64,000 nt of DNA, from assembly GCF_050920415.1 (NCBI RefSeq), contig NZ_CP169309.1, one strand, 5' to 3'. Made by a program: the position numbers and the translations under genes. Positions 1-42,238 of this stretch are shown here, piece by piece. A model generated the notes under the pieces. It was given only the letters and a program-made list of their open reading frames with translations. It was not told the origin of the DNA and ran no database searches. The stretch is from Escherichia coli. GTDB taxonomy: Bacteria > Pseudomonadota > Gammaproteobacteria > Enterobacterales > Enterobacteriaceae. Every line of letters starts with the position of its first letter. Position 1 is the stretch's first letter.

Positions 1-3946
<3,946 letters not shown>

Positions 3947-3982: not shown

Positions 3983-4119
3983 TACTTTCTTATAAATTAA
4001 TACAGATTAATCCTGGTTATTTGCTTTATTTATCACCAGTCATCCGGTATAGTTCTTCATAATCTCTGCAAAATCATCATGTTGTAATATTCTCTCATCA
4101 CTCTCCATCAAATTTTCTT

Positions 4120-4137
4120 TTTTTCTCCATAATTGGC
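4120..4137 (+). promoter_or_regulatory. BaeR-box upstream of spy
   Basis: Sequence tttttctccataattggc is an exact match to the remembered BaeR consensus TTTTTCTCCATDATTGGC, about 140 nt upstream of spy ATG. Confidence 0.7.
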
Positions 4138-4190
4138 GCAAAAGTGTTTTTTACACTTTCATTGTTTTACCGTTGCTCTGATTAATTGAC

Positions 4191-4206
4191 GCTAAAGTCA
4201 GTAAAG
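4191..4206 (+). promoter_or_regulatory. CpxR-like tandem pentamer repeat in spy promoter
   Basis: gCTAAAgtcaGTAAAg: two GTAAA-like pentamers, spacing one nt shorter than the GTAAA-N5-GTAAA consensus; about 70 nt upstream of spy ATG. Confidence 0.4.
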
Positions 4207-4275
4207 TTAATCTCGTCAACACGGCACGCTACTTAAGAAAGCCGTAATAAATAACTGAAAGGAAGGATATAGAAT

Positions 4276-4761
4276 ATGCGTAAATTAACTGCACTGTTTG
4301 TTGCCTCTACCCTGGCTCTTGGCGCGGCTAACCTGGCCCATGCCGCAGACACCACTACCTCAGCACCGGCTGACGCGAAGCCGATGATGCACCACAAAGG
4401 CAAGTTCGGTCCGCATCAGGACATGATGTTCAAAGACCTGAACCTGACCGACGCGCAGAAACAGCAGATCCGCGAAATCATGAAAGGCCAGCGTGACCAG
4501 ATGAAACGTCCGCCGCTGGAAGAACGCCGCGCAATGCATGACATCATTGCCAGCGATACCTTCGATAAAGCAAAAGCTGAAGCACAGATCGCAAAAATGG
4601 AAGAACAGCGCAAAGCTAACATGCTGGCGCACATGGAAACCCAGAACAAGATTTACAACATCCTGACGCCGGAACAGAAAAAGCAATTTAATGCTAATTT
4701 TGAGAAGCGTCTGACAGAACGTCCAGCGGCAAAAGGTAAAATGCCTGCAACTGCTGAATAA
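4276..4761 (+). CDS. spy: periplasmic ATP-independent chaperone Spy
   Basis: 161-aa ORF with signal peptide (MRKLTALFVASTLALGAANLAHA), paired LTxxQ motifs (LNLTDAQKQQ, LTPEQKKQ); strong RBS gaaaggaagg. Confidence 0.95.
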   Translation: MRKLTALFVASTLALGAANLAHAADTTTSAPADAKPMMHHKGKFGPHQDMMFKDLNLTDAQKQQIREIMKGQRDQMKRPPLEERRAMHDIIASDTFDKAKAEAQIAKMEEQRKANMLAHMETQNKIYNILTPEQKKQFNANFEKRLTERPAAKGKMPATAE

Positions 4762-40201: not shown

Positions 40202-41248
40202 TCAGAAGCGGGTATCAACCGCAGAGGCGAGTTTTTCGACCAGGCGTTCGGTATCTTCCCAGCCCAGACACGGGTCGGTAATCGATTGACCGTAAGTGAG
40301 CGGCTGACCGCCGACGATTTTTTGCGTTCCTTCGCGCAGGAAACTTTCCGCCATAATTCCAGCAATCGCCGTAGAGCCATTGCGGATTTGCTGACAAATA
40401 TCCTCACAAACTTCTAACTGGCGACGATGCTGCTTCTGGCAGTTGCCGTGGCTGAAATCCACCACCAGATGTTCAGGTAAATCAAACTCGTGCAACGTAT
40501 CGCAGGCAGCGGCGATATCATCCGCATGGTAATTCGGCTTTTTGCCGCCACGCATAATAATGTGGCCATACGGATTGCCGCTGGTCTGATAGATGGTCAT
40601 CTGACCATTTTTGTCTGGCGAGAGGAACATATGGCTGGCGCGGGCTGCGCGGATAGCATCCACGGCAATCCGCGTGTTGCCATCGGTACCATTTTTGAAA
40701 CCTACCGGACAGGAGAGTGCCGAAGCCATTTCACGGTGGATCTGACTTTCGGTAGTACGTGCGCCAATCGCGCCCCAACTGATTAAATCAGCAATAAACT
40801 GACCGGTCACCATATCGAGAAACTCAGTCGCGGTAGGGACGCCCAGCTCATTGACCTGTAAAAGTAATTTGCGCGCCAGCTCCAGACCGTGATTTACCCG
40901 ATAGCTGCCGTTTAAATCCGGGTCGGAGATTAGCCCTTTCCAGCCGACTACAGTTCGTGGTTTTTCAAAATAGGTGCGCATTACGATTTCCAGCCGTGAC
41001 TGGTACTGATTGCGCAGTGACTGCAGGCGGGTGGCGTACTCCATTGCAGCGGTGAGATCGTGGATCGAGCAGGGGCCAATAATGACCAACAGTCGCTTGT
41101 CTTCACCATTCAGTATTTTTTCAATTCTGCGACGGGAGTCGGTGACATGGGTGGCGACGCCAGGCGTTACGGGATACCGTAGCGCGAGTTCGGCGGGCGT
41201 TACCAGGCTCTCAATACGCGCAGTACGGAGTTCGTCAGTTCTGTTCAT
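40202..41248 (-). CDS. aroH: DAHP synthase, Trp-sensitive
   Basis: 348-aa class I DAHP synthase ORF (MNRTDELRTARIESLVTPAEL...; KPRT, GxRT motifs). Confidence 0.95.
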   Translation of the reverse strand: MNRTDELRTARIESLVTPAELALRYPVTPGVATHVTDSRRRIEKILNGEDKRLLVIIGPCSIHDLTAAMEYATRLQSLRNQYQSRLEIVMRTYFEKPRTVVGWKGLISDPDLNGSYRVNHGLELARKLLLQVNELGVPTATEFLDMVTGQFIADLISWGAIGARTTESQIHREMASALSCPVGFKNGTDGNTRIAVDAIRAARASHMFLSPDKNGQMTIYQTSGNPYGHIIMRGGKKPNYHADDIAAACDTLHEFDLPEHLVVDFSHGNCQKQHRRQLEVCEDICQQIRNGSTAIAGIMAESFLREGTQKIVGGQPLTYGQSITDPCLGWEDTERLVEKLASAVDTRF

Positions 41249-41391
41249 TACAAGTCTCAGAAATTTGTTGCTTCTACGGCAGGACTACCGGGAAGTGATG
41301 CGCATCACGATAAACCAATCGCAGCTGATTTCAAGTGCGAGGTGTGTCACACCTCGCCGGGTGGTTAGCATGATAACAAAAAAACAAGTTA

Positions 41392-41413
41392 ATGCACTAG
41401 TTCTCTAGTACAT
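41392..41413 (-). promoter_or_regulatory. TrpR operator of aroH
   Basis: Minus-strand ATGTACTAGAGAACTAGTGCAT contains the trp-repressor half-sites ACTAG...CTAGT; overlaps the last codons and stop of ppsR. Confidence 0.75.
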
Positions 41414-42238
41414 TCGACGGCTAAGGCCCATGATATCAAGGATCTTGGTGGCAATCTCTTCTACCGAATAATTGGTACTGTTAATCCACGGGATCTGATT
41501 TTTACGGTACAACGCTTCCACTTCCGCGACTTCCATCCTGCACTGACGAAGCGAGGCATAGCGACTGTTCTCCCGACGTTCCTCGCGAATCGCTGCCAGA
41601 CGTTCCGGGTCGATAGTCAGGCCGAACAATTTATGCTGAAGCGGTTTGAGCGACGCGGGTAGCACCAGATTATCCATATCGTCGGCAATAAAGGGGTAGT
41701 TTGCCGCGCGGATACCAAATTGCATTGCCAGATACAGACTGGTGGGGGTTTTACCACAGCGAGAAACGCCGAGCAGGATCACCTGAGCCTGGTCCAGATT
41801 GCGCAACGAAATGCCGTCGTCATGGGCAAGGGTGTAATCAATCGCCGCAATGCGCGCATCGTATTTATTGAGATTATTAGGGTTAAGGCCATGGGTACGA
41901 TGAGCAATCGGCGTTGGATCCAGTTTCATCTCTTGTTGTAGCGGGGCAACCAGCGCCTGAACGATATCCTGGCAAAAGCCTTCACTTTGCAAGATGATGG
42001 CGCGAATCTCCGGCAACACGATGGAGTAGAAGACCAGTGGGCGCACACCTGTCTGGTGATAAATTGCGTCAATCTGATCCTTCACTGCCCGTGCACGGCT
42101 CTCATTTTCGACAAACGGCAGCGTAATGCTGCTGATAGTGACGGGAAATTGTGACATTACTGCGTGTCCTAATACCTCCGCAGTTATTGCCGTACCATCA
42201 GAAATATAAAAAACGTGGCGATCAACAGCATTATCCAT
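41405..42238 (-). CDS. ppsR: PEP synthase regulatory protein (bifunctional kinase/pyrophosphorylase)
   Basis: 277-aa ORF with P-loop (GVSRCGKT); divergent from ppsA. Confidence 0.93.

Follow-up and report, generated by a model that had tools for sequence, protein, structure and literature searches.

The control of aroH by TrpR through a catalogued operator is already known and belongs to textbook biology. In Escherichia coli K-12, aroH is an established TrpR target according to a comparative-genomics study, and binding to the K-12 site is, to judge by their titles, the subject of two experimental papers (Kumamoto et al. 1987; Klig et al. 1988). The TrpR-box targets trpR, mtr and aroL belong to the same regulon, and a published comparative study concluded that TrpR control of aroH and aroL is restricted to Enterobacteriales. 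In Salmonella, conserved intergenic sites with a CTAG are on record at yaiI/aroL and trpH/trpL, and the Salmonella lineages also share the CTAG at aroH/ydiA. Overlap of a regulatory site with the end of an upstream gene is a general phenomenon in compact bacterial genomes rather than a defined family, and it implies no specific mechanism. The aroH operator is one such case, with a measurable constraint on the synonymous position and the stop codon of its neighbour.

We studied this operator in a stretch of 64,000 nucleotides of E. coli DNA (contig NZ_CP169309.1), hereafter called the window. By direct reading of the sequence, the TrpR operator of aroH, ATGTACTAGAGAACTAGTGCAT, lies at positions 41413..41392 on the minus strand, a strand that the initial annotation of the site had left unstated. 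The operator contains two CTAG cores, 8 bp apart, within two-fold symmetric half-sites (G-ACTAG ... CTAGT-C), and its 18-nt core box, GTACTAGAGAACTAGTGC, occupies 41411..41394 (minus strand). A search of the 64-kb window with the pattern GTACTAGNNNNCTAGTRC returned a single site at zero mismatches (minus strand), where 0.10 was expected from shuffles. With up to two mismatches, the aroH operator was still the only site, now reported on both strands.

As an independent check of the operator pattern, the 18-nt pattern was also run on the K-12 trp promoter. It matched the trp operator, GAACTAGTTAACTAGTAC, directly after the TTGACA -35 hexamer with one mismatch, against 0 matches expected by chance. 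The operator of E. coli trpEDCBA and the aroH box have ACTAG-N4-CTAGT in common, with CTAG cores 8 bp apart, and 14 of the 18 bases are identical. They differ in their placement. The trp operator lies between the -35 hexamer and the transcription start site (TSS), covers the -10 region and does not overlap a coding sequence, whereas the aroH box covers the -35 hexamer.

The closest comparison is the aroH region of E. coli K-12 MG1655, which has ppsR and aroH in synteny and aligns with the window without gaps (98% identity over 231 bp). The 22-mer of the operator is identical, and so are the ppsR-aroH order, the 156-bp spacing, the -10 hexamer and the P2 promoter. Four intergenic substitutions separate the two sequences, two of which lie in the P1 spacer (TTAACTTG against TTAGCTTA) and none in the operator. 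The gene names ppsR and aroH follow the RefSeq annotation of matching E. coli genomes. Identity and synteny make the site an orthologue of the experimentally characterised operator. Since TrpR control of aroH is established in K-12, they also bear out the earlier naming of this palindrome as the aroH TrpR operator.

The ppsR (ydiA) gene is an open reading frame of 277 aa with the C-terminus ...RRMY (41405..42238, minus strand; RefSeq annotation). The regulated gene aroH, which encodes the Trp-sensitive DAHP synthase, is an open reading frame of 348 aa that starts with MNRTDELRTA (40202..41248, minus strand; RefSeq annotation), and the intergenic region between the two measures 156 bp. The last codons of ppsR, ATG (41413-41411), TAC (41410-41408) and TAG (41407-41405), all on the minus strand, form the left half of the operator. 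Hence, the initial annotation was right to place the palindrome on the final Met-Tyr-stop codons of ppsR, as ATG-TAC-TAG at 41413..41405 constitutes its left 9 nt. It was also right to place the aroH ATG 144 bp further on, with the ATG at 41248 and the end of the palindrome at 41392. Its view that promoter and operator are both embedded in the 3' end of ppsR stands for part of the operator, of which 9 of the 22 nt are inside ppsR, but not for the promoter, because the -35 (41398-41393) and -10 (41375-41370) hexamers of aroHp1 lie downstream of the stop codon. The operator overlaps ppsR because the genes are tightly spaced, and the overlap has no known function of its own.

Two aroH promoters, aroHp1 (P1) and aroHp2 (P2), are listed in databases. 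We derived their start sites from the guide-RNA table of a preprint, with targets at -70/-91 for aroHp1 and -80/-81 for aroHp2, and mapped them onto the window by the gap-free K-12 alignment; both guides agreed for each promoter. The guide positions in this database-based table put the aroHp1 TSS at 41365 (K-12 1788318; minus strand). On the same strand, the -10 hexamer TATCAT occupies 41370..41375, and the -35 hexamer AGTGCA, at 41393..41398, lies 17 nt upstream of it and inside the right half of the operator. This -35 hexamer is a poor match to the consensus (3 of 6 positions). Relative to the database-derived TSS, the operator is centred at about -37.5 and overlaps the core promoter. The corresponding -35 hexamers in other genera likewise fall inside the box, and the -10 hexamer follows the box at a near-fixed distance across loci: 60 of 78 loci had a -10-like hexamer 17-18 nt after the box. 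These hexamers were of the TAT-nnT type (TATCAT, TATTAT, TATGAT, TATACT) in 57 of the 78 loci, and were TATCAT, TATTAT or TATGAT in 53.

We are highly confident that the palindrome is the TrpR operator of aroHp1, that it would act by occlusion of the -35 hexamer and that its left half lies in the end of ppsR. The sequence of the site, its overlap with ppsR, its identity to K-12, its conservation, the constraint on codons and the retention of the box beside aroH were observed directly, while its position relative to P1 is based on the database TSS and the spacing. When tryptophan is plentiful, the TrpR-tryptophan complex would occupy the two CTAG-centred half-sites (41413-41392). The left one is written in the last two codons and the stop codon of ppsR (..G TAC TAG/TAA), a gene that ends immediately upstream. 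The right one coincides with the -35 hexamer of aroHp1, so that the bound repressor would exclude RNA polymerase, and with aroHp1 blocked less of the Trp-sensitive DAHP synthase would be made. TrpR binding at the site in the window, its exact footprint and -35 occlusion are what established knowledge and the derived start positions lead us to expect. The second promoter, aroHp2, 66 nt downstream, would escape this control.

A promoter scan placed the core of aroHp2, TTGAAA-16-TATCGT, at 41307..41334 on the minus strand (-35 at 41334-41329, -10 at 41312-41307). Its TSS lies at 41299 (K-12 1788384; minus strand), 51 nt before the aroH ATG, as determined by TSS-seq with 414 reads (Kim et al.). 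This position agrees with the aroHp2 guide positions, and the sequence upstream of the TSS-seq start is identical to the aroHp2 promoter sequence of the window. The aroHp2 start is 66 nt downstream of the aroHp1 start and about 103.5 bp from the operator centre. Across genera, the TATCGT hexamer is kept as TATCGT or TAAGGT. The leader block around aroHp2 (41294-41334) is more conserved across genera than the third-codon positions of ppsR. We consider aroHp2 to be beyond the reach of TrpR, where it probably gives TrpR-independent expression. Hudson et al. reportedly described such expression from the downstream aroH promoter in 1991.

The only aroH start in the TSS-seq table, which was obtained in M9 glucose, is that of aroHp2 (414 reads, 51-nt 5' UTR); aroHp1 is absent from the list. 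Further starts were included in that study from 50% of the strongest one upward. The signal of aroHp1 was therefore below 50% of that of aroHp2, which makes it the weaker promoter in M9 glucose. Searches of the SMRT-Cappable-seq and Cappable-seq supplements for aroHp1 starts gave no matches. The initial annotation had proposed start-site mapping as a check of its promoter assignment. The database-derived aroHp1 start at 41365 fits the operator; the sole aroH start listed by TSS-seq belongs to aroHp2, a promoter that the initial annotation had missed.

Conservation was studied in 80 ppsR loci, one per species, all from Enterobacteriaceae and with a PpsR identity of 90-100%; Klebsiella and Raoultella are absent from this set. 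In all 80 loci, aroH follows ppsR on the same strand. A TrpR-type box was present at a constant register, beginning exactly 4 nt ahead of the ppsR stop codon, in 76 of the 80 species, which together with the window gives 77 overlapping loci. The bases G-TAC-TA and CTAG are invariant in these 77 loci and the T at +11 is kept in 76, whereas the four central bases of the box and its flanks vary.

The initial annotation had suggested a comparison of operator conservation with synonymous-site conservation in ppsR, and this comparison came out in favour of the operator. The final Tyr codon of ppsR (Tyr277) is TAC in 77 of 77 loci, while nine other conserved Tyr columns mix TAC and TAT. Only one of the 48 third-codon positions in the preceding 150 nt is invariant, and this position belongs to a Met codon. 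The stop codon of ppsR is TAA in 62 loci, TAG in 15 and TGA in none. Hence, the box is conserved beyond neutral expectation and linked to aroH, as expected of a TrpR operator, and the overlap imposes a constraint on ppsR: its final Tyr codon is TAC and its stop codon TAA or TAG, a measurable cost in codon freedom.

These data effectively rule out that the palindrome is a chance by-product of the coding of the ppsR C-terminus without a regulatory role. Such an origin has some appeal in that PpsR C-termini vary outside Enterobacteriaceae and closer relatives there often end with R-x-x-Tyr/Phe (RHKY, RRLY, RRLF and RHMF among several closer cluster representatives), so that x-TAC-TAA could give half a site by accident. 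However, CTAGT in the non-coding right half shows little or no variation among the 77 loci while the flanking intergenic bases vary, the chance expectation is 0.1 per window, a synonymous site of ppsR (TAC) is frozen, and the box persists where it is detached from ppsR. As we infer from these C-termini, the bulk of a half-site could already have been present in an x-Tyr-stop ending (..G TAC TAA) when the operator evolved.

None of the 77 loci has a perfect palindrome: 68 have one mismatch and nine have two. The TAG stop codon, which makes the left half perfect, never occurs together with the perfect right half CTAGTAC (0 of 15 loci), whereas 53 of the 62 loci with a TAA stop codon have CTAGTAC. 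The TAG stop codons are confined to three clades, namely Escherichia, the Citrobacter freundii group and Franconibacter. This pattern could reflect tuning toward intermediate affinity or, equally, shared ancestry, with TAG in three clades. It is conceivable, although we consider it unlikely, that a trade-off between the stop codon and the right half keeps the operator below its optimum, and that bound TrpR gates weak read-through from ppsR into aroH. If so, the site would illustrate, on a small scale, how a stop codon co-evolves with a repressor site.

Several lineages provide natural experiments in which the overlap is broken or the box is separated from ppsR. An insertion splits ppsR from aroH in L033 (205 bp) and in L040 (1455 bp). 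In both, the complete box, GTACTAACAAGCTAGTAC, is kept beside aroH, 141 nt from the ATG (140-145 nt elsewhere). The ppsR gene of L033, freed from the box, ends with ATG-TAT-TAG. In L070, the box lies 20 nt after the ppsR stop codon and has a trp-like left half, GAACTAG. In L036 (Intestinirhabdus alba; positions ~3326-3337), ppsR ends with ...ATG TAT CAA TAA, while the right half, ACTAGTTC, is kept. Comparison with its relatives suggests that the ancestral stop codon became CAA, which added one residue, and that TAC became TAT, with destruction of the left half-site. Both overlap-broken loci, L033 and L036, have TAT; once outside the box, the codon is no longer held at TAC. Because the box stays with aroH after the insertions, it is an element of the aroH promoter and not a terminator of ppsR.

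This distinction matters for another reading of the same palindrome, in which it forms, together with a T-run, mainly the intrinsic terminator of ppsR and its RNA hairpin stops transcription before aroH. A terminator scan indeed flagged exactly the operator site, where it found a stem of 10 pairs followed by the tail AACTTGTTTT. The hairpin has a predicted energy of about -10 to -12 kcal/mol (-11.4 to -11.8 with z = -2.0 in one computation), and a T7 run follows the palindrome in Escherichia, Citrobacter and Salmonella. In the window, this run lies in the aroHp1 spacer at 41378..41384 (minus strand) and was scored together with the palindrome in the terminator-like scan. However, where an intrinsic terminator has a G+C-rich stem with a U-tract immediately behind it, G-C pairs make up only three of the 10 in this stem, and the T7 run does not begin until 7 nt beyond it. 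The box occurs family-wide, but T-runs of at least 5, apart from isolated cases elsewhere, are found only in Escherichia, Citrobacter and Salmonella. What is conserved are specific bases (CTAGTAC) around a variable centre, and not pairing; covariation of the stem is beyond assessment, as its left arm is fixed by coding. Moreover, the insertions left the box beside aroH rather than ppsR, and the Term-seq tables of Adams 2021 list no ppsR 3' end at the operator site, for a gene that is weakly expressed. Since any palindromic operator folds as RNA, we regard the hairpin as incidental. In Escherichia, it may have a weak secondary effect as a terminator, but a main role as the ppsR terminator is very unlikely, and we retain the palindrome as the TrpR operator of aroHp1.

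The initial annotation had also pointed out that read-through from ppsR would run across a repressor-bound site. A polymerase coming from ppsR meets, in this order, the TrpR site, P1, two CRP sites and P2. TrpR bound to the operator might thus act as a tryptophan-dependent roadblock, by which ppsR-driven expression of aroH would be under TrpR control as well. Some read-through is plausible, given that there is no conserved terminator between ppsR and aroH and no reported ppsR 3' end, and the arrangement of ppsR, operator and aroH is kept across the family. Yet, the ppsR start sites gave only 8 and 7 reads in TSS-seq, versus 414 for aroHp2 and 420 for ppsA, so that the share of read-through in aroH expression is probably small. 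The need of aroHp1 for the box, in combination with tight gene spacing, suffices to explain why the overlap is conserved, and the lineages in which the box lies apart from the stop codon (L033, L040 and L070) have kept box and promoter intact. Nothing on ppsR-aroH co-transcription was found in the supplements of the Adams 2021 Term-seq, SMRT-Cappable-seq and Cappable-seq studies, and a literature search judged by titles and term counts found no relevant paper on the overlap or on a TrpR roadblock at ppsR. We therefore regard a roadblock function as quite unlikely, next to repression of aroHp1 as the role of the operator.

Our results carry little weight for new biology, as TrpR control of aroH is textbook knowledge and the site is catalogued. 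What is newly quantified is the in-register box throughout the family, the constraint on TAC and the stop codon, and the linkage of the box to aroH; these results are tidy and unsurprising. They offer a clean, quantified case of a regulatory site that constrains the last sense codon and the stop codon of its neighbour across a whole bacterial family. The overlap is also relevant to genome recoding, where a change of the ppsR stop codon from TAG to TAA or of its last sense codon from TAC to TAT edits the aroH operator. Furthermore, control of aroH exceeds one operator and one promoter, as it includes a downstream promoter that is probably TrpR-independent and is overlapped by a CRP site, and this complexity matters for engineering of the aromatic amino-acid pathway.

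A predicted CRP site, CGTGATGCGCATCACT, straddles the aroHp2 start (41294..41309, minus strand; centre at about -2.5), and a CRP-like site, TGTGACACACCTCGCA, is found at 41351..41336 (minus strand), at about -44.5 of P2 and +22.5 of P1. The aroH CRP ChIP-seq peak of ETEC H10407 is listed with two predicted sites, which are exactly CGTGATGCGCATCACT and TGTGACACACCTCGCA. The motif GTGA-N6-TCAC at P2 is conserved across genera. In the texts searched, we found no report on how CRP affects aroH.

The P1 leader contains a perfect 10-bp inverted repeat, GCGAGGTGTGaCACACCTCGC, at 41337..41357 (minus strand), which includes TGTGACACACCTCGCA and is predicted to fold into a hairpin of -15.6 kcal/mol. A strong hairpin between the P1 start and the P2 -35 hexamer also occurs in L021-L031, L043-L045, L049, L051, L052, L060, L066 and L068, of which L021-L031, L043-L045, L049 and L051 are Enterobacter, Lelliottia and related isolates. 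These leader hairpins have predicted energies of -13 to -18 kcal/mol, end 2-3 nt before TTGAAA and have no U-tract. Their sequence differs between genera: GCGAGGTGTGaCACACCTCGC in E. coli, CGGGGCG..CGCCCCG in Enterobacter, and CAGGGCA..TGCCCTG in Leclercia and Silvania. To judge from these sequences, the structure of the hairpin seems to be conserved and its sequence not. The hairpin might make P1 transcripts more stable at their 5' end, or it might act as an insulator.

In the Citrobacter freundii group (L007, L008, L010-L013 and L016; positions ~3335-3460), ppsR and aroH are closer together by about 30 bp (intergenic region of 125-126 bp). These loci have neither the leader hairpin nor the TTGAAA -35 hexamer of aroHp2; the TrpR box, the P1 -10 hexamer and GTGATG..CATCAC are kept. 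An Rfam scan of 41150-41500 gave no match to an RNA family. Control of the conserved aroH leader by the sRNA GcvB is ruled out by a published reporter assay, which found no regulation.

Among 5,423 matching E. coli genomes, only two are at least 99% identical to positions 40900-41700 of the window (801 bp). The window and E. whittamii (L002) have PpsR proteins that are 100% identical. In contrast, the segment of the window from P1 to the hairpin is K-12-like, and L002, L005 and E. albertii (L006) have another version of this segment in common. The sequence comparison suggests a mosaic ancestry of, or recombination at, the ppsR-aroH locus of the window.

The insertion in L040 (Kosakonia sacchari) contains two small Gly-rich open reading frames on the opposite strand, at 3495-3803 and 4105-4422. 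They have leader sequences of the double-glycine type (MKELTAHEMQYASGG..., ...MKQLSNDEMQAVSGAG...) and, by their sequence, look like microcin or bacteriocin precursors. Finally, the Term-seq tables of Adams 2021 place the 3' end of an antisense RNA inside ppsR; its coordinate, 1787648 on the K-12 minus strand, maps to about 42035 (plus strand) in the window. This strong 3' end, with a score of 24585.7, is the sole one listed there for ppsR.
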